From contig CM039002.1 in the NCBI GenBank assembly GCA_017499595.2, positions 744,001 through 808,000 on the forward strand: DNA of 64,000 bases. The letters run 5' to 3'. The notes under the pieces were generated by a model. It searched no databases. It had not been told where the DNA came from and saw nothing but the letters and a program-made list of their open reading frames with translations. The DNA comes from Psilocybe cubensis (taxonomy: Eukaryota). Made by a program: the position numbers and the translations under genes. This document shows, one piece after another, positions 124 to 56,939 of this stretch (position 1 is its first letter; each line of letters opens with the position of its first letter).

Positions 124-3100
124 CCCCCGCGCATCCTCGCGAAACTAGGGTTCACACCCAACTCACTCACAGCCCTTCGGCTAGGCGCGGACGACACGCT
201 CGTAGCGGCGGGCGGCCAGGACAGAGAGCTGCATTTATCATATTACACACCATCCTCCTCCTCCTCCTCCTCTCCATCCACGTCCACATCCACTTCAAAC
301 CCAAATGCCCTCTCAAATTCAAGCTCAAGCTCATCCACAAACGCATACACACTCGCCTCCCAAACCCGGCTCTCAACAGGCCACCCAACGCGCCTCCCGC
401 GCACACGTCGTCTCTGGACATACGAAACCCGGCTCGTCGGGTCCATCAACAACTCCGTCCTCCTCCTGCCCCCGGGGGCGAGGGGTATGGGCGCTGCGGA
501 GCCCCGCGCGGTGATTAGCAATAATGATTGGTGTGTGAGGGTGTATGATATCCCGATGAGGGTTAAGAGTGCGAGGAGGGAGTTGGGGTTGGTTGGGGAG
601 GTCAAGTTGGATGTGGCTGTTAATCATTGTGAGTTAAATTTAATTCTATATCTATATCTCTATTAACATATACTCCCCATACAGCCTCGTTATCACCAGA
701 CGGCCGCACCCTCCTCTCCGTCGGCGACTCGCACAAGATATACTTCCACCAGCTATCAGGCAGCGCGCATCTCACATTCACACCCATCCAGACACTCGAC
801 ATCCCTCCGCCGTCCGCGACACCGTTTTCGTCGTCCCGCTCGTCGCCTTATTCGCGGGCGCCGTACTCCTCTTCTCCATTCTCCTCCTCCTTCCAATCAC
901 CGTACTCCTCCTCCTTTTCATCACCGTACTCCTTTTCCTCTCCATACTCCTCCTATTCATCGCCGTATTCCTCGTACTCCTCCTACCCATACACACCAAC
1001 CCAAACCCACCCAACAACACTCACAGCAGCATTCTCAACAGCCTTCAACGCAGACGGCAGCAAGTTCGCGGTCGCGAGTCAGGAGGGCGTCGTAGCTGTG
1101 TGGGATGTGAGGAGTGTGAAGAGGCCTTTGGGGGTTTGGTGTACGGATCGGATGCGCGGGTCTTCTTCTGGGTCGGGGAGTGGTGCGGGTGGTGGGTTAG
1201 GGTCAAGCTCAGGCTCAGGTTCAGGCTTAGGGTCAGGCTCGGGTGGCAATGTAGGAGGAGGACAAGGACAAGGACAAGGAGGCGCAGCATCAGGATACAT
1301 CCACCCACACACGACCCCCCACCTCTTCGACGACCCCTGGGACTGGACACGCGGCACGCGCGCCCCCGGGTGGTGCGTGCGCAATGTCAAATTCAACGCG
1401 GGCGAGGGCGCGCGGATGGGGAAGGAGGTCATGGTGTTTACTGAGGTGGGTGTTTGTGTTTTTTTGGTTTTTTTGTGTTTTTTTGGTTTTTTGTGTTTTT
1501 TTGGTTTTTGGTGTTTTTTGGAGAGCTTTCTTTGGGAGTTTTTTGGGGGGGTTTTGGTTTTTGGAGGTGCTTTTTGGTTTTTTTTTTTTTTTTTTTTTTT
1601 TGCTTCTGTTCTTTTTTTCTTGTGTTTTTGGGAGGGTCCTTTTGCGGGTTTTTTTCTTTCTTTCTTTTTTTTTTTTTTTTTTTTTTTCTTTTGAGAGAGG
1701 GTTGGGTTTGGTGGGTTAGGTTCGGTGGTTGGGTTTGGCGTTTCTGGTGGTTGGGCTTGATGGGTTTTGTGGGTTGGGTGGTTTTGTGGGTTTTTGGCTT
1801 TGGCGGGTTTTAGCGGTCGGGTTTTAGCGGTCGGGTTTTGGTGGTCGGGTTTTGGTGGTTGGGTTTTGGCGGTTGGGTTTTGTGGATTTGGCGTTTTTTG
1901 GTGGTTGCGCTTGATGGGTATTGCGGGTTTTTTTGGCTTTGTGGGTTGGGTGGTTTTGGTGGTTTTAGGTTTTGGCGGTATGTGTGTGTTTTGTGTTTTG
2001 GAGGTTTTGGCGGGTTGTGTTTGGGGTTTCTGGTGGTTTTAGTGGTTTTGTGTTTTGTGTTTTGGAGGTTTTGGCGGTTTTGGTGGGTTGTGTTTTGAGT
2101 TTTGGTGGTTGTGTTTTGTGTTTTGTGTTTTTGGGTGTTTTGTGTTTTGTGTTTTTGTGTTTTGTGTTTTGAGTGTGTTTTGTGTTTTGGTGTTTTGTGT
2201 TTTGTGTTTTGGGCTTTGGCGGTTTTGTCGGTTTTTGTGGGTTTTGTGTTTTGGCGATTTGTGCTTTGTGTTTTGGTGGTTTTGATGGTTGTGTTTTGGT
2301 GGTTCTGTGTTTTGTGTTTGGGCGGTTTTGGAGGTTTTGGCGGTTTTGGCGCTTTGTGTTTTGTGTGTGTTTTGTGGTTGCGCTTTATGTCTGCTTTTTT
2401 GTGAATTTATGATTTCTTTCGCGTTGTATTTTTCTATTTCCCCACTAACCAATCTCTTATACTCATTCTCTCTTCTTTCTTCTCTTTCTTCGCATTTTCC
2501 CTCTTTCTCTTCTCTCTTTCTTCTTCTTTCATTTACCCTCTCTCTTCTCTCTTCTCATCCTCTCATTCTCCCCTCTCTCTTCTCTCTTCTCTCTTCTCTC
2601 TTTCTCTATCCCTATTCTCCCCGTATATCTTCACTCACTAACACACCCTCTCTCCCCCCCTTCCCTTCCAAACCCAACCAAAAAAAAACACCCAACCAAC
2701 CAAATACCGAAAAAAAGCACACAAGCAAAATCCACATAATAGACGCCCAGACCTTCGACTCGCACGATATAGTCACCGTTCCGACCGTGTTTAGTCCGCC
2801 TCGCAAGGCGGGTGCGGGTGGGAGGGTGAGGCCTCAGAGTCAGAGTCAGACTACGAATCCGCGGGTGCGTGTGAGAGGAGGTGTGGGTGCCGCGAATGGA
2901 GGAGCGAATGGAGGAAGTGTTGGCGGTGTAGGAGCGGGAGCGGGAGCGGGAGCAGGAGCAGGAGCAGGAGCAGCACCGAGCGGCCGACCGAGACTCGGAA
3001 CAGGAACAGGAACAGGAACAAGAACGAGACCAAGACCGAGGCTTACAAGGACCACGAGCGGCGTGAGCGCCTCCGCTGCATCTGCAGGTGTTGGTGCCGC

Positions 3101-3772
3101 CGCGCCTGCTTCTGCTATACCTTCTGCTGTAGCTTCTGCTTCGACTACAGCTTCGGCTTCGACTACAGCATCTGCAACACTAGCTAGACAGTCCCCGCCG
3201 ACAAGCTCAAGCACGACCGCGTCGATCGCAGGGGAGATCGCGAGCGCTGTTGACGTGGACGTGAACATGGGTATGGCGCGGGGTTTAGCGCTGGTTGGCG
3301 GTGTTGGCGGTGCTGCTTCGGGTCTTGAGGGTTCGAGTGGAAACGCAGATGTCGACCTGGATGCAGACGCAGACGAGGATGAAGACGCGGGCATGGACAT
3401 AGACGTCGCGCTAGCAGCTGCACAGCGCGCTCTGGCGCGGCGCCGGCGGCGTGTGCGCGGGCCTGTTCGCGTGGGTGTACCCGTGCGAGATACCGAAAAT
3501 ACGGAGAGCATGGATGTGGACAGAGAGGGAGACGGAGGAGGAGAGAGAGAAGGAGGTGGAGGTGGAGACAGAGACAGAGAAGGGGAACGCGCGCGTGCTC
3601 ATGCGCGTGCGATGGCGCTTGCGTTGCCTGTAAGCCACGCGCGTGCGGAGGGCGAAGCAGAAGCGGAATCTCCTGGCGCTGGTACTAGTACTAGTGCAGG
3701 GCTCTCGCCGTTGAGACGGTCCGTGACGGATCCTTCTCCTTCTTCTGGTTCTGGTTCTGGCTCTACTTCAGG

Positions 3773-3805
<33 letters not shown>

Positions 3806-5771
3806 GCAACAGCAGCAACAGCAACCAAGCATCGTCCGAGCGCTAGGCGACGCGTTCCGGATCGCGATTCCCTCTTCGTCTTTGTCTCCATCTTCGGGTT
3901 CTGCTTCGGGTTCGGTTCCGGGTTCTGCGTCACATGCTGCGAGTGGGAGTACGAGTACGAGTGGGGGTGCGAGGACGCGTACTCGTGCACACGCGCACGC
4001 GCATACACGCGGATCGCACTCGAGTTCAAATGCGCGCTCGCCTGCGCGCCGGACGACGAATACAAGCACACCGAGGTCACCACCCACACATAATCATACA
4101 TCAAGGTCTTTACCCACACCTACACCGCCTACCCATACGCATACGCCTACACCGCCTACCCATACGCACACGCATACGCACACACCCACACCCACACCAC
4201 CGCCAATGACGCGCACACCCGCACACAGCGGATACTCGCCGCCCGCTAGCATTGGGGATTCGACGTGGCGCACGCTTGGGGGAGGGATTGGCGTGCGTGG
4301 GCCGTGGGGTGTTTCGCATGTTGGTACGAGTGCGAGTGCGAGTGTGGGAGGGGATGAGAGGATGGATGTTGTTCAGCATGGGGATGGGAGTGGGAGTGGA
4401 GAGGATGAGGAGGGAAGTGAGAGTGAGAGCGAGAGCGAGATGTTCCATGTGCTTGACGAGACGGAGCTCGCGAGGCGCGCGCGCGAGAGAGCGAGGATGC
4501 GGGTTGTTGGTGATGATGATGACGATGATTATGAGTACGAGTACGAAGAGGAAGAGGAGGATGGGGATTTGGAGTATACTGAAGGCGAAGGGGAGGGAGA
4601 GACGGATGCGGACGGCGAGACTGAGACCGAGACGGAGACGGAGCAGGAGGAGGGCATCGTGGTTGTGCCGGACTTGGGGGATCGGGAGGTGGAGAGCGAG
4701 GTGCATGCGCTGCTTGCTGTGCATGGTATACCCAGCCGCATTGGCGGTAGGAGGAGGAGGAGCAGGGAGGATAGTATGGATGTGGATGAGGTTGGTGGGT
4801 TGCATCAGGGAGAGGAGGAGGAGGAAGAGCAAGGAATGTACCGCTATGATGAAGATGATAGACGCGAGCGCGTGAGGCAGGCGCTGCATGACGCGCGGGA
4901 TTATCGGTATGACGTCAATGACGAGGATGTCAACGACGATGATCGGGATGAAGAGCAGGAGCAGGACTGTGTGGAGGGTCAGTCGAGGAGTGTGTCCCCT
5001 TCGCGCTCCGTGCTTGGACGCCGGCGCAGGCGTATCAGACAGGGTGCGAGTGCTACTTCAAGTGGATATATTTCAGGGGGGAGTGGTGTAGGGATGAGAC
5101 GGGCTGGGTTTAACCTCGCGTCCATGTCCACATCGGCGAGGTATGGGAGTGCTGGGCCGTCGCGGTTAGGTGGCGGTGCGGGTGTGGGTATGGAAGAGGA
5201 TGAAGATGAGGAGGGGGAGGAGGGGTGGGGGTCTGGTGTGCATTATGGCGGTCTAGCCTCTGGAAACACGAGCGACGCGGACAAACGCGTCCGCCCGCGC
5301 CGCGCCGGCTCGGGCTCACATCGCGGTACAGGTACACACACTCCCACATCTACATCTGCATCTGCATCTACACACGCACACGCACATACGCGCGCGAGTA
5401 AAACCACGTTGTCGTCATCTTCGTCGTCCCCATCGGCGGCGGGAGCGAGGTTCGCAGGGCGCGTGGGGATATACGACGAGTTGGATATTGCCGGTGTGTG
5501 CTTTGACCCGTGGGGAGAGAAGATGTATGTGCTTGGAGTGGGCGCGGCGGGGTCTGCTTATGGGTATGGGTACGGTTACGGTTACGGTTACGGTGGTGCT
5601 TATGGGGTTGGGTACGCGGTTGGGGGTGCGGGTGCGGGTGTGGGTGCGGGTGGGTATGGAGGAGCAGGCGGAGGAGGAGGAGGAGAGGAAGAGGAAGGTG
5701 TAGGTGCTGTTGTCGAATGGAGTGTGAGAGGTGCTGAGAAGAGGTGGTGGGTTGATGAAGGGTGGATGTGA
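124..5771 (+). CDS. DUF2415 / WD40-like beta-propeller protein, 5' end outside the window; exons about 124-628, 685-1445, 2718-5771
   Basis: Spliced translation gives LVAAGGQ, GSINNSVLL, VISNND, VNHSSLSPDGRTLLSVGDS, AFSTAFNADGSKFAVASQEGVVAVWDVRS, VRNVKF and VFTE|HTSKIHIIDAQTF, ending in DIAGVCFDPWGEKMYV...VVEWSVRGAEKRWW. GT-AG junctions at 629/684 and 1446/2717. Confidence 0.8.
1446..2717 (+). repeat. 1272-bp intron filled with strand-biased simple repeats (poly-T, TTTTG/GTTTT, GGTTTT, then CT-rich)
   Basis: GTGGGT donor after the FTE codons and AAG acceptor before the HTSK codons; the interior is low-complexity throughout. Confidence 0.75.
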
Positions 5772-6983
5772 GGTTTTTTCTTGCTTTGTTTTCGTGTTTT
5801 TTTCTGGTTGTGTTTGTGGTTGTGTTTTTGTGTTTTGTGTTTTTCTGGTTGTGTTTGTGTTTTTGGTTGTGTTTGTATTTTCTCTCTCTGTTTTGCTTGA
5901 TTCTTTGCTCAACATCCAACATCCACATCCAACTTCTATCTTCTATCGTCTCCTCGCTACCTCCCCATTATGAAAAACAAATCGTAAAAATCGCTTCATT
6001 TCATTTTTTTTGGTCGGTCGGTTGTAATAACTAGTCTAAGGACGGTGTATGTGTACAGTATCTGTATGTGTATGTTTGAATTGTAACATGTAACATTAGT
6101 TTGCTTGTTGTAAAATTAAAATTAAATGTTCTTTTCTCTTCTCTACTCTTTACTCTCTACTCCTGCTCTACTCTCTCTGCCTAGTGCCTAGTCCTTCTAT
6201 CTTCTCTTCTTGCGAGGTTGCAACTTTTTTCCCCTTTTTTGTACAGTTTTATTCTTTTTTCTGACGTACAAAAGGCTTAAACTGTGCTTTTGCTATATCG
6301 ACTATGACTATGACAGCTGCATACAGTATCTTGGCTTCTTACCTGTACTCGTATCCGTTCGTGTTTGTACTATTGCTACTAGTATTACTACTACTCTCCT
6401 ACCATTAAGCTCTATAAATCATGCATCTGGATCTGCATTCGTTTCTATTCATTCAGAGTCTCCTGTCTCTCTGTCTTCAGTCTTAGGAGAGTGTAACTTT
6501 AAGTATGACTCGGACGCGTTACTGATTGCACGCGACGCGACACGACATGACACGACGTGATAATTGATCGCGTCGCGTCGTCGTGTCGCGCCGCGTTGGT
6601 GGCTGCGGCTGACCTTGACTTCTGACTTCTGACTTCTGACTGCTGACTGCTGACTGCTGCCAACTATAATATATAATGGCTAATGGCGGCTGACTCGTGA
6701 TGGACGGCTGACGCGCTGAATCGTGATGGACTCTATGGCTGACACTGAAGCGTAGGGTAGGGTATATAACCCCCCACATCTCCCGTTTGAATTCTTTCAT
6801 CAGCCCATCCAAGGTTCAAGGTTCAAAGAGCTTGTTTGTTTGTTTGCTGGTCAATCCGTTCATGTGGCTGGAGGTAGAACCTGAGGTAGAGCCCAAGGTA
6901 CGCAGCATTCCATTCCATTCTCTTCTCCTCGCTTCCTCGCCTCCTCCCTTGCTCAATTATCTCAATTATCTCAATTATTGTAG

Positions 6984-9900
6984 GATGGGACCGCTCGAGA
7001 ATTATCTCGCGTACTCTTCCTCCTCTTCCTCCTTCTCTCCTCCGCGTCCTTGGTCGCTCCAGTCCCTGTGAACCGTCCGATGACCTAGTCAAGATACGTC
7101 ACGGACGACCCCAACCACAACCACCATCGCACACGGCCACACACAGCGCTGCGCTGCGATGCGTACGTGCATGTGTATATACCCGAATCCGGATCGCAGC
7201 TCGTCAAGAACGCTCGATTCACCTCTAACCCCTTAAAACCAAAAAACCAAAAAACCAAAAAAAAATAAAGTGTACTGAGAACGAGAGCTGAGGTTGGGTT
7301 GGGATGGGTTGGGATGGGATGGGATGGTAAAGGCATGTCCTCCTCCAACCTTTAATATTTGATATTTTAAACTTGAAGTGCTGAATAGAATGGGTTGTTT
7401 TGGGTGGGCACTTAGATCAAGGCTTTGAGCTCCGCTCGCTTCTTTACTATTCTTGTCCCAGTCTGACGACAACGGAAGCCTGTTGAAGGACGAGGGTTTG
7501 GAATGGTGAAGGTGTGTCTTTTCCCCCCTAACTTTTATTATTTCATCGTTTCATTAATTTTGGGTGGTAGATAAAGGCTTTGAGCTCCGCTCGCCTCTTC
7601 ACCCTCCCTACCCTCATTCGACGACCAATACCTATACCCCGCTGAGATGAGGGTTTGAAATGGTGAAGGCAAGTCCTACGTCCCTCATTATTATACAATT
7701 CGGGGTATTAACTTGGTTTATTTGTGGTAGATAAAGGATTGAGCTCCGCTCGCCTCTTCACCCTCCTTGCCCTCGTCTCACGACAACGGAAGCCTGCTGA
7801 AGATGAGGACTTGTGATGATGAAGGTTTGCTATATTCCTCATTATAACATTTTTTGGGTGCTGAATGTTAATGATTTAGATAAAGGCTTTGAGCTCTGCT
7901 CGCCTCTTCATTATCCACGCCCTCGTTTGACGACCTGTACCTAAACCCCGCTGAAGATGAGCGTTAGGAATGGTGAAGGCAAGTCCTATATCCCTCATTA
8001 TAACATTTTTTGGGTGCTGAATGTTAATGGTACTTGTAGATAAAGGACTGAGCTCCGCTCGCCTCTTCACCCCCTCACGCCCTCGTTTCTTGACCAACAA
8101 CAAAACCCCGTTGAAGATGAAGGTTTGGAATGGTAAAGGTCTGCTACACCCCTCATTATAATATTTCTGGGTACTGAATGTTAATGATATATATAGATCA
8201 AGGATTGAGCTCCGCTCGCCTCTTTACTATCCATTCCCTCGTCTGAAGACAACGGAAGCCTGCTGAAGATGAGGGTTTGGAATGGTGAAGGCAAGTCCTA
8301 TATTCCTCATTATAATATTTCTGGGTACTGAATATTAAGATTTAGATAAAGGATTGAGCTCCGCTCGCCTCTTCATCCTCCTTTCCCTCGTCTGACGACA
8401 ACGGAAGCCTGCTGAAGATGAGGGTTTGGAACGGTGAAGGTCTGTCCTATATCCCTCATCATTATCCAATTTTTAGGGTGCTAACACATGGATTATTTGT
8501 GGTAGATTAAGGCTTTGAGCTCTGCATGCCTCTTTACCCTCCCTGCCCTTGTTTCTTGGCCAACAACAAAACCCCGTTGAAGATGAAGGTTTGGAGTGGT
8601 GAAGGTACGTCCTATACCCCTCATCATTATCCAATTTTTAGGGTACTAACACATGGATTATTTTGGGTGGTAGATAAAGGCTTCGAGCTCCGCTCGCCTC
8701 TTCATTATCCACGCCCTCGTTTGACGACCTGTACCTAAACCCCGCTGAAGATGAGGGCTTGTGACGGTGAAAGTGTGTCCTATATCCCTCATTATAACAT
8801 TTTTTGGGTGCTGAATGTTAATGGTACTTGTAGATAAAGGACTGAGCTCCGCTCGCCTCTTCACCCCCTCACGCCCTCGTTTCTTGACCAACAACAAAAC
8901 CCCACCTGAAGATGAGGTTTTGGAATGGTAAAGGTCTGCTACACCCCTCATTATAATATTTCTGGGTACTGAATGTTAATGATATATATAGATCAAGGAT
9001 TGAGCTCCGCTCGCCTCTTTACTATCCATTCCTTCATCTGAAGACAACGGAAACCTGCTAAAGATGAGGACTTGTGATGGTGAAGGTACATCTTATATCC
9101 TTCATTAATTAGTGATTTTTGGGATATTGACACTTGATTTGATTTGGGTGGTACTCAGATAAAGGCTTTGAGCTCCGCTCGCCTCTTCACCCTCCTTTCC
9201 CTCGTCTGAAGACAACGGAAACCTGCTGAAGTGAGGGTTTGGGAATGGTGAAGGTGTATCCTATATCCCTCATTATTATACGATTTTCGGGGTATTAACA
9301 CATGGATTATTTGTGGTAGATAAAGGCTTTGAGCTCTGCTCGCCTCTTCATTATCCACGCCCTCGTTTGACGACCTGTACCTAAACCCCGCTGAAGATGA
9401 GGGCTTGGAATGGTGAAGGTCTGACCTCTATCCCTCACTATACGATTTTTGGGTTATTAACTTGGTTTATTTTGGATGGTAGATAAAGGATTGAGCTCCG
9501 CTCGCCTCTTTACCCTCCCTACCCTCATTCAAACAACAATTTATCCCTAGCTGAAGATGAGGTTTTGGAATGGTGAAGGTCTGTCCTGTATCCTTCATTA
9601 ATTATGCGATATTCTGGGATGTTAATACTTGATTTATTTTGGGAACTAGATAAAGGCCTTGAGCTCTGCTCGCCTCTTCATTATCCACGCCCTCATTCAA
9701 CAACCGATACCTATACCCCGCTGAAGATGAGGGCTTGGAATGGTGAAGGTACGTCCTCTATACTCTAACCTTTACTATTTGATGTTTTAAAGTGCTGACT
9801 TGGTGTGTTTTGGATGGTAGATAAAGGATTGAGCTCCGCTCGCTTCTTTACCTTCCCTGCCCTCGTTTCTTGGCCAACAACAAAACCCCGCTGAAGATGA

Positions 9901-10793
9901 GGGTTTGGAATGGTGAAGGTACGTCCTCTATACTCTAACCTTTACTATTTGATGTTTTAAAGTGCTGACTTGGTGTGTTTTGGATGGTAGATAAAGGATT
10001 GAGCTCCGCTCGCTTCTTTACCTTCCCTGCCCTCGTTTCTTGGCCAACAACAAAACCCCGCTGAAGATGAGGGTTTGGAATGGTGAAGGTCTGTCCTGTA
10101 TCCTTCATTAATTATGCGATATTCTGGGATGTTAATACTTGATTTATTTTGGGAACTAGATAAAGGCCTTGAGCTCTGCTCGCCTCTTCATATCCTTGCC
10201 CCCATTTGGCGACCGATACCGAAAACCCGTTAAGATGAGGGCTTGGAATGGTGAAGGTATGTTATTTTTCCTCTAGCCATCGTCATATCATTTTGTTGGG
10301 GTGCTGAATACAAATGATACTTGTAGATAAAGGACTGAGCTCCGCTCGCCTCTTTACCTTCCCTACCCTCGTTTCTTGGCCAACAACAAAACCCCGTTGA
10401 AGATGAAGGTTTGGAATGGTGAAGGTATGCTACATCCCTCATTAATTATATGATTCGAGGTACTAACACATGGTTTATTTTTGCTAGATAAAGGATTTGA
10501 GCTCCGCTCGCCTCTTTACCCCCCACGCCCTCATTTCTTGGCCAACAACAAAACCCCGTTGAAGATGAAGGTTTGGAATGGTGAAGGTACGTCCTATATC
10601 CCTCATCATTATCCAATTTTTAGGGTACTAACACATGGATTATTTGTGGTAGATAAAGGCTTCGAGCTCCGCTCGCCTCTTTACTGTCCATTCCCTCATC
10701 TGAAGCCAACCACACCCAAGGGAGGATGAGGGCTTGTGATGGAAGGTATGGAGTCCCTCTAATCTTTATCCTTCATACATTTTTTTCGACCAG
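6984..10793 (+). ncRNA. Putative multi-exon spliced non-coding transcript (or decayed coding gene) built from repeated exons
   Basis: Every unit has a GT or GCAAGT donor, a branch-like motif (TACTAAC, TGCTAAC, TATTAAC, TGCTGAC) and a YAG acceptor. Exons are about 94-99 nt with no shared open frame. An upstream intron lies at about 6898-6983. Confidence 0.5.
7333..10793 (+). repeat. Tandem array of about 21 units (150-170 bp), each an exon-like block plus a short intron
   Basis: Core GAGCTCYGC(TCGC) recurs at about 7427, 7582, 7741, 7891, 8050, 8207, 8356, 8517, 8685, 8844, 9002, 9170, 9331, 9493, 9661, 9831, 10001, 10171, 10337, 10499 and 10664. A second conserved block is TGAAGATGAGGGTTTGGAATGGTGAAG. 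Confidence 0.95.
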
Positions 10794-12530
10794 CGTCCCT
10801 TTCCGCCTCTTTTTCATTTCACTTTTTTTAATTCTTTCACTGAATATGAATAATACATAGACATCGCTCGAGCATTAGCTCCCGTACTTCCGCCACCTCT
10901 CTGAGTACCCCGATGGCCTATACATCGGATAATGTATACGCATGCTCGTCAAGAAAGCAAGCGACACGCAGAAATAAATAAAAAAATACAACCCAGGTGT
11001 GTCACCTCCATCCCCATCCCCCATCATCATCAAGCTACCAACTAACGCAAATCGGATTCAGAAAACCCAAAAACCCACTTCGCCCACTTTCGTGCGCGAG
11101 ACCCCAAAAAAAGTGAGTGAATTTCCGAACCCAATCTGCATCATGATAATCCAAACCTAACCATGAATCTGTCATAATCATATTATATAGAAAGATGGTC
11201 CCGGGAGTTTCTCGCTCTCCGGCCCTCTACATCAGTTCGCATACGAACGCAATTTCAAATTAAATACCCCAAAGCAGCATCGGAAGGTTAGGAACGCGCC
11301 ACCACCGCCATCTTTGATATAAGTTAGGATAGGAGATGGTAATCATCTTCCATGCTGCAAAAGCTCCAGTGGGGGTGGTCTCCGTCCCCCGCTGTAATGA
11401 ACGTGCATGTCATTGTCAAGGATAGCTGGGGGGCATGCGATGGTCGAGGTGCGTCCCGATGCCCATACCTATTCTTTTATCTACCAGCGTGCTGATTCTA
11501 AGTGCTAGTCGAGATAAACGATCGAGCTCCGCTCTCCTCTCGATCTCCACCATCTATGCCCCTCCCCGTCCGACGACGACGACAACCACACCCCCATTGC
11601 AAAGCAGTCGTAGTTGACGACGTCACGCTCGCACTGCAACAATATACCCGGGTCGCTCAGCTCGCCAAGAAAGCAGGCAACCCAACGCACAAGTTGAATA
11701 GATTAAATACAAAAAATCCAACGTCGCTGCACTACGCGCGAGACCCAAAAAAATCGTGTATAATAGTAAAACCCCTAGCAAAAAAAAAATATAAAAAGTG
11801 TAAAACGGGTTCTGCCTGGACGAAACTGAGTGTCCTGTGGGATTTGACATGAAACACAATAGGCGCTCATACACCCGCGCTCAATTGGTCAACAAGCGAC
11901 TTAACCAGCACCGCTTGGTGATAAAAAAAGCCGCAAACATACCCTTTACGTGCTCACCTTCTCTTGTTTTTTTTTCAAGTTCTCTCCTTTGATCGGTACC
12001 CCTGGGAATAATTTCGGGCACGTCGGTCACTTCAAGGTATCGCGTCGTTCGTCTTTTTGGACTTCAACATAACTACACATCTTTCTTCATCACCAGTCCT
12101 CCTCCCCGACCATCACACCGTCCAGCCAGCTTCTAGACAATCTGTTGCTCCGTATCATACAAGTCTCTGGGACCTACGGGACCCTCCTTTATCGTATCAC
12201 GTATCACTAGACAAGACAACATCTCATCCAAACGGACCGCGAATCGTCTCAATCACAACTAGTATCTATTGGAGCGAAGTACCGAAGTACCTTGTCAGCG
12301 CCCACCGCCATACCCAAGCGAGCAGTACCTGGAGGGTCCAGCAACCAAAAAAAAAGGCAAGGAGTGGACGGCGGTTACTATGGATGCCAAGACAAGTTTT
12401 CACTCTAGACGATCGGGAAGTTGCGACTTCCGCTTGCTAGTTGCGAAGTGGTTGCGTCGGGCCCCGAACTAATGACCATACAATTTTGTCCTTAACAAGC
12501 GCTAGCGGTCGTCATTTCTGGATGTTGAGA

Positions 12531-56804: not shown

Positions 56805-56939
56805 GGTGAGATGGCCGAGCGGTCTAAGGCGCCAGACTAAGGTTAACGACCAGGATGTTAGACATCCAATTAGGTAACCAATCATTGGTTACTTAATATC
56901 TGGTCCTCCGGGGCGTGGGTTCGAATCCCACTCTCATCA
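56805..56939 (+). tRNA. tRNA-Leu(AAG) with a 55-nt intron (56843-56897)
   Basis: Acceptor stem GGTGAGA/TCTCATC, D-arm TGGCCGAGCGGTCTAAGGC, anticodon stem CCAGA/TCTGG with CT-AAG-G, long variable arm, GGTTCGAATCC, and a T-run terminator downstream. Confidence 0.93.

Follow-up and report, generated by a model that had tools for sequence, protein, structure and literature searches.

What kind of gene consists of many copies of one short exon together with its intron? The question is raised by a tandem array on the plus strand of Psilocybe cubensis DNA, at positions 7416-10745 of the 64,000-nucleotide stretch analyzed here (the window, to which all positions refer). The original prediction, made from the letters of this stretch, described about 21 repeated exon-plus-intron units with preserved splice signals and offered three options: a spliced long non-coding RNA (lncRNA) of repeated exons, an array of alternative-exon cassettes, or a recently decayed repeat-protein gene. 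On balance, and with moderate confidence, we read the locus as a lineage-restricted, multi-exon lncRNA gene that arose by tandem duplication of an exon-plus-intron cassette, and whose repeated exon module would do the actual work, most likely by serving as a platform for multivalent binding.

The array contains 21 units, each with a conserved block of 93-100 nucleotides (nt), a splice donor, a diverged spacer of 55-73 nt and a YAG acceptor. Tandem Repeats Finder (TRF) reported a single array at 7564-10697 with a period of 170, 19.3 copies and 71% matches. The 18-mer that is best conserved within the unit, with up to three mismatches allowed, occurs 22 times and on the plus strand only: 21 times between 7427 and 10681, and once as a degenerate copy at 11524. 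The expected number in shuffled sequence is 0.05, and none of 100 shuffles reached 22. A sequence search of the remainder of the 64-kb window did not find the unit outside the array locus. The block alignment delimits 21 units, the number that had been estimated. The spacer length of 55-80 nt given at that time is right at its short end and too large at its upper end, the 20 internal spacers measuring 55-73 nt. The blocks start with ATAAAGG in 17 of the 21 units, with ATCAAGG in three and with ATTAAGG in one; 16 of them end with GGTGAAG.

We refer to the blocks, all on the plus strand and delimited by block alignment, as repeat exons 1 to 21. Seven of them are 99 nt long: exons 4 (7880-7978), 5 (8040-8138), 8 (8506-8604), 9 (8674-8772), 13 (9320-9418), 15 (9650-9748) and 20 (10488-10586). 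Four have a length of 94 nt, namely exons 3 (7731-7824), 6 (8197-8290), 7 (8346-8439) and 11 (8992-9085). Another four are 98 nt long, i.e. exons 2 (7571-7668), 16 (9821-9918), 17 (9991-10088) and 19 (10327-10424); exons 16 and 17 are identical, and the 21 exons therefore represent 20 distinct sequences. Exons 1 (7416-7511) and 14 (9483-9578) have 96 nt. The remaining lengths occur once each: 95 nt in exon 12 (9159-9253), 97 nt in exon 18 (10160-10256), 100 nt in exon 10 (8834-8933) and 93 nt in exon 21 (10653-10745), which is the most diverged copy. Among the 20 internal introns, 17 sequences are distinct.

Are the blocks flanked by real splice sites? All 21 are directly followed by a donor, which is GT in 18 cases and GC in three; this invariance is partly circular, because the motifs with which the unit boundaries were set include the G and the following T or C. 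The AG dinucleotide in front of the blocks was not imposed in this way and is present in 21 of 21 cases (20 TAG, one CAG). The three GC donors have the sequence GCAAGT and lie at 7669, 7979 and 8291, behind exons 2, 4 and 6; these donors, a TACTAAC motif at 8644, and the presence of a donor and a YAG acceptor at every unit had already been noted in the original prediction and were all seen again. A CTRAY-like branch motif is located 8-45 nt upstream of the acceptor in 21 of the 24 introns of the locus, while 500 shuffles averaged 10.1 and never exceeded 18. In the spacer alignment only six of 87 columns are invariant, and three of these are the first G and the terminal AG.

An additional intron is predicted in front of the array, at 7333-7415 (83 nt, AAG/GCATGT...TTAG/ATCAAGG). 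Its donor at 7333, again of the GC type, would terminate a leader exon, the putative end of which (7292-7332) carries a G-rich TGGGA/TGGGTTGGGA repeat and ends with GGTAAAG directly before the donor. This repeat, found by TRF at 7292-7327 on the plus strand, adjoins the predicted donor and may form G-quadruplexes.

Two further observations concern the introns. The spacers 7979-8039 and 8773-8833 are identical over their last 55 nt and differ in the donor hexamer, GCAAGT versus GTGTGT, where three of the four positions 2-5 are changed; either the exon end marks a conversion breakpoint, or the change compensates for the GC donor. A CCCTCAT motif, or a one-letter variant of it, is found about 14-20 nt inside the intron in approximately 16 of 20 spacers, as counted manually on the spacer alignment. 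It is complementary to the exonic ATGAGGG, which precedes the donor by about 20 nt; the two could close a stem around the 5' splice site. A gene on the minus strand was also considered and rejected: a donor-like GTTAGT is present there, but the boundaries lack AG acceptors and the folds are weaker than on the plus strand.

Evidence that the introns are removed comes from assembled contigs. None of the sequencing runs found is recorded as RNA; run X10 was guessed to be RNA, while X5 and X8 are DNA runs, and contigs of all three were aligned on 6800-11600. A further run, X14, yielded no alignment there. X10 provides three contigs with five joints, and all five have GT..AG ends on the plus strand. 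Three of the joints are at array boundaries. The first (10422>10486, cut +2) connects the 3' end of exon 19 with exon 20, which is covered by the contig, and removes the 63-nt intron 10425-10487 exactly as predicted. In the second (8602>10651, GT..AG, cut +2) the predicted donor connects the end of exon 8, of which the contig contains the last 37+2 nt, with a ATAAAGGCTTCGAGC-type exon start. The third (10743>10859, cut +2) defines the last array intron at 10746-10860 (115 nt), again with the donor as predicted. The array had originally been assigned an end at 10793; this joint places its last acceptor at 10860. Exon 21 is entirely contained in contig 1, where the acceptor of the preceding intron (10587-10652, 66 nt) is used.

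The two other joints in X10 are downstream of the array and correspond to the introns 10997-11061 (65 nt, GTGTGT...CAG, with a CTAAC branch motif) and 11113-11190 (78 nt, GTGAGT...TAG). They separate a non-repeat exon at 10861-10996 in contig 1, a second one at 11062-11112 and further exon sequence at 11191-11300, at the end of which the contig, though not necessarily the transcript, terminates. The transcript thus continues past the array with at least three non-repeat exons. None of the five joints occurs in the X5 and X8 contigs in the same alignment. We take the X10 joints as complementary DNA (cDNA) evidence of splicing, the RNA status of the run being guessed, because five GT..AG joints on the same strand are hard to obtain otherwise. 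The intervals 6800-8409 and 8732-10341 are without X10 cover, and nothing can be read from this for those parts. The DNA contigs from X5 and X8 show joints of another kind: they connect distant array units within 7458-10389, with skips of 678, 979, 1905 and 2605 nt, and none of these is GT..AG. They represent either differences between strains in copy number or arrangement, or a collapse of the short-read assembly. A skipping of exons between 8604 and 10653, as the second X10 joint might suggest, was discarded, since exons 9 and 21 share their first 29 nt and are not resolvable with 31-letter words.

Public gene models point in the same direction. A protein search with a 91-amino-acid (aa) open reading frame (ORF) from the array returned two models labelled Psilocybe cubensis, P0001 and P0002. 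P0002 (65 aa) is identical, letter for letter, to a part of frame 0 of the spliced construct; its gene model therefore uses the introns 10425-10487 and 10587-10652. P0001 uses intron 11113-11190 according to a manual reading of its tail, which was not mapped by program. The two models may or may not be based on RNA data. The view that the units are spliced exon-plus-intron cassettes agrees with these introns and with the X10 junctions, which cover about three of the 21 in the array.

Does the spliced RNA encode a protein? In a construct of spliced array plus tail (2335 nt), the three frames are interrupted by 43, 45 and 38 stops, and the longest open stretch is 89 aa. Exon 9 by itself already has stops in all three frames, as had been stated before and as was seen on translation. 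The exon lengths are distributed 10/6/5 over the three classes modulo 3, which excludes a coding form of the alternative-exon cassette listed among the initial options. Furthermore, the 5' part of the block, where conservation is highest, contains a 1-nt insertion or deletion (ATAAAGGCTTTGAG versus ATAAAGGATTGAG) that divides the units about evenly. When the diversity between units is sorted by codon position in the frame of the gene models, it amounts to 0.254 for position 1, 0.214 for position 2 and 0.159 for position 3, which is the least variable one. The variation from unit to unit reveals no excess at third positions (permutation p = 0.96). A Pfam search with P0001, P0002 and the 91-aa ORF at E up to 10 found no family apart from one chance-level row. 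The array is without protein-coding capacity, and the public entries P0001 and P0002 most likely represent ORFs that were spuriously called in a non-coding array.

The conserved part of the unit could also form RNA structure. Each exon module contains an invariant GAGCUCCGCUCGCCUCUU segment with a mini-hairpin of 5 base pairs (bp; GAGCUCCGCUC). In addition, each exon can form a long imperfect hairpin from the arms CUUCAYY..CCCUCRU and AUGAGGG..GGAAUGGUGAAG, and the loop that separates the two arms is variable and can be sorted into about five sequence classes. Fold z-scores for four exons were -1.1, -2.8, -2.9 and -4.1 on the plus strand (exon 16 has -4.06), and 0.0, -0.7, -2.7 and -0.8 for their complements. 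In an alignment of 20 exons, 88.9% of 477 cells are paired, compared with 39.5-45.3% after sliding the partner; many of the changes in the hairpin place C or U opposite G. These data make a hairpin structure of the exon plausible as a model. A global fold of the spliced array (2038 nt) predicts 429 pairs between exons and 260 within exons. At gathering score there is no Rfam match in the array, and a permissive search of 7000-11200 (E up to 10) resulted in five chance-level rows and no snoRNA (small nucleolar RNA) family. We also considered the CTGA and GATGA motifs of the block as boxes of a C/D snoRNA; this candidate was rejected, as a canonical C box is missing, CTGA is changed to TTGA in several copies and Rfam has no match.

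The absence of coding capacity could also be a secondary state. One of the initial options, which we regard as a minority rival and as rather improbable, holds that the array descends from a gene for a protein with 33-residue repeats, possibly WD40-like, with one exon per repeat, and that it lost its frame while still being transcribed and spliced. Such an ancestor would explain why seven exons have 99 nt and why ten of the 21 are divisible by 3. It would also fit exon 5, in which one 1-nt deletion and one 1-nt insertion restore a length of 99 nt, as well as the frame KGFELRSPL..KMKVWNGE, which is open over the last exons and includes the 89-aa stretch, and the annotation of P0001 and P0002 as proteins. 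A HMMER scan of 1.84 billion protein representatives even found, besides P0001 and P0002, only four proteins, all with WD40 repeats and with E-values between 7e-10 and 2.5e-4. This likeness does not stand up to inspection, because each E-value adds up 9-15 near-identical repeats of a hit against two repeats in the query; single stretches in the four hits reach at most 8.9 bits, and we rejected a WD40 origin as an artefact of this summing. Pfam PF00400 (WD40) has no row for P0001, P0002 or the 91-aa ORF. The 38-45 stops per frame and the low variability of the third codon position are likewise difficult to reconcile with a decayed gene. In addition, units that were already defective have multiplied: there are four 94-nt exons, and three copies share one TAA in frame. 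This indicates that the array grew in a non-coding state.

The RNA may also be spliced and nevertheless without function. Duplication could have caught exon and intron of a young transcript, with the likeness between copies simply reflecting recent duplication or gene conversion; we consider such a neutral transcribed satellite unlikely. It has in its favor the higher-order periods of 330 and 466 that TRF reports within the array, which together with the identical neighboring units (exons 16 and 17, and the repeated intron sequences) point to recent block duplication. The lack of covariation beyond shuffles and the differing joints of the X5 and X8 DNA contigs inside the array, whether they are due to rearrangement or to assembly collapse, are also compatible with it. 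The same holds for the absence of a homologue in the protein representative scan and, among the matches listed, in a metagenome scan. In the latter, a degenerate 18-mer found at least 118 loci, none of the 118 with the unit pattern anchor-N50-80-GGTRAAGG; each of the 80 listed (the best 80 of at least 118) has a single 18-mer match, and these are chance hits. The distribution of sequence differences within the unit speaks against neutrality. The mean pairwise identity is 76% for the blocks and 57% for the spacers. Because the exon and the intron of a unit are equally old, the greater identity of the exons argues for constraint or for biased conversion of the part that enters the mature RNA. 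All 21 donors and 21 acceptors are kept, although pairwise identity of the spacers falls as low as 31%, and the introns starting at 7979 and 8773 differ only at the donor hexamer, where both sequences are usable donors. A different role for the exons, which we judge to be very unlikely, is that of a polycistronic precursor of small RNAs: the exon hairpins, whose stems are imperfect and about 24 bp long, would be cut by Dicer into microRNA-like products and the spliced RNA would be a mere carrier. Every unit does have hairpin potential, stronger on the plus strand, and models of microRNA precursors account for the weak rows that the permissive Rfam search returned. These rows are at chance level (15.7-20 bits versus gathering scores of 48-80, E 3-8), the arms pair equally well between exons, and the exons persist as spliced long RNA in the assembled X10 contigs.

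The spliced repeat-exon lncRNA, the first of the initial options, fits best with the 38-45 stops per frame, the lack of a codon-position signature and the X10 joints. We propose that one cassette, consisting of an exon of about 96 nt and a spliceosomal intron of about 63 nt, was tandemly duplicated into a plus-strand lncRNA gene. This gene would have a short G-rich leader exon, the 21 repeat exons at 7416-10745, and at least three non-repeat exons at 10861-11300 and beyond. Splicing, presumably of all 21 array introns, would remove the diverged spacers and leave about 2.0 kb of module copies arranged head to tail. The mature RNA would then act through these many copies, most likely as a multivalent platform to which a protein or another RNA binds, by analogy with the exonic repeats of the mammalian Firre RNA. 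The hairpin arms could pair within one exon or between neighboring exons, giving the RNA the form of beads on a string or of a zipper. A more elaborate version, which is doubtful, sees a scaffold or sponge of 21 structured exon copies in which the arms switch between hairpin beads and inter-exon zippers, and in which the intronic CCCTCAT tunes exon inclusion or back-splicing.

Several points weigh against the proposal of an lncRNA with a working exon module. The RNA status of X10 is a guess; contigs of this run reach about three of the 21 array junctions and leave about 18 without cover, and the joint from 8604 to 10653 may be an ordinary junction from 8604 to 8674. Ten of the 21 exons have kept a length divisible by 3, and annotators have called short ORFs at this locus. 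The higher identity of the exons could stem from gene conversion and not from selection. Covariation in the 20-exon alignment is no better than in shuffles (one pair with a double change versus a shuffled mean of 2.6), which means that the hairpin is a property common to the copies and not proof of selection. Finally, because pairs between exons outnumber those within exons in the global fold, no single structure is favored.

How does this architecture compare with known RNAs? Passages of one study (PMC4820808) describe for the mammalian lncRNA Firre an exonic local repeat, RRD, which is present in 7 of the 13 exons in humans and in 11 of the 23 in mice, and which acts at the RNA level as a module for protein binding and nuclear retention. 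The repeat of the fungal array is similarly exonic, local (within the 64-kb window) and part of a spliced non-coding transcript, a likeness in architecture; similarity in sequence is not to be expected. Unlike in Firre, the repeat makes up all of the 21 consecutive exons, and it was duplicated jointly with its intron as a compact cassette of about 160 nt; moreover, the host is a fungus, and binding is a proposal. A second mammalian case is presented in parts of two other reports (PMC9369261, PMC4742849): the IPW-A exons of the SNORD116 cluster are tandem non-coding units of exon plus intron in one long spliced RNA that hosts intronic snoRNAs. As far as these parts go, the fungal array shares with this cluster the tandem non-coding exon-plus-intron units within one spliced RNA. 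It differs in what is conserved: in the mammalian cluster the intronic snoRNA is the conserved functional part, whereas the fungal array conserves the exon (76% versus 57%). With a length of 55-73 nt and no Rfam match, the array introns host nothing.

The repeat units of the lncRNA NORAD, a multivalent protein sponge, all lie within a single exon and bear a recognized motif for protein binding. The fungal RNA would resemble it in that many copies of one structured module are present in the mature RNA, with a multivalent sponge as working model. It differs in that each unit is an exon of its own, in which no binding motif of a known protein was recognized. Full-text literature searches on fungi and Psilocybe, with incomplete coverage, found no fungal RNA of tandemly repeated spliced exons among the papers listed. 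For comparable repeat-built lncRNAs, the descriptions that we found were limited to mammals, and there the repeats perform the function. If the more elaborate version is true, this would be the first regulatory RNA of repeated exons to be described from fungi, within the literature searched. Should the module have a partner, the compact locus (about 4 kb with 24 short introns) would be a tractable system, in which the multiplication of cassettes, the upkeep of splice sites under concerted evolution and multivalency in regulatory RNA could be studied.

Downstream of the covered exons, a diverged partial copy of the last unit and the tail is found at 11511-11760, with a degenerate 22nd unit at about 11511-11606. 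Another X10 contig covers 11546-11600 and extends beyond. Pairwise BLAST detects likenesses between 10653-10680 and 11514-11540, between 10944-10991 and 11660-11712, and between 11032-11111 and 11671-11753. Similarity of the tail to 11514-11753 is only short in this comparison, and a three-way alignment with the upstream flank was uninformative. The partial duplicate is without the intron 10997-11061. From about 12500 on, it is the minus strand that carries the long ORFs, and the transcript therefore probably terminates upstream of this position.

Upstream of the array, the plus strand contains a large low-complexity ORF system at 633-5771. One of its frames, ORF 633-1694, has a sub-threshold Pfam row for WD40 (19.3 bits versus a cut-off of 27), the only row among nine flanking ORFs; no DNA similarity was found between this ORF and the array unit. 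In or beside the same ORF system, long GT-rich and CT-rich tandem repeats with periods of 7, 9, 22, 40 and 64 occupy 1453-2376 and 2453-2619. In a search for transfer RNA (tRNA) genes, ARAGORN in its bacterial setting found none in the window. The sole Rfam match in the window at gathering score is a tRNA at 56805-56939 (135 nt, 47.2 bits), which presumably contains an intron.

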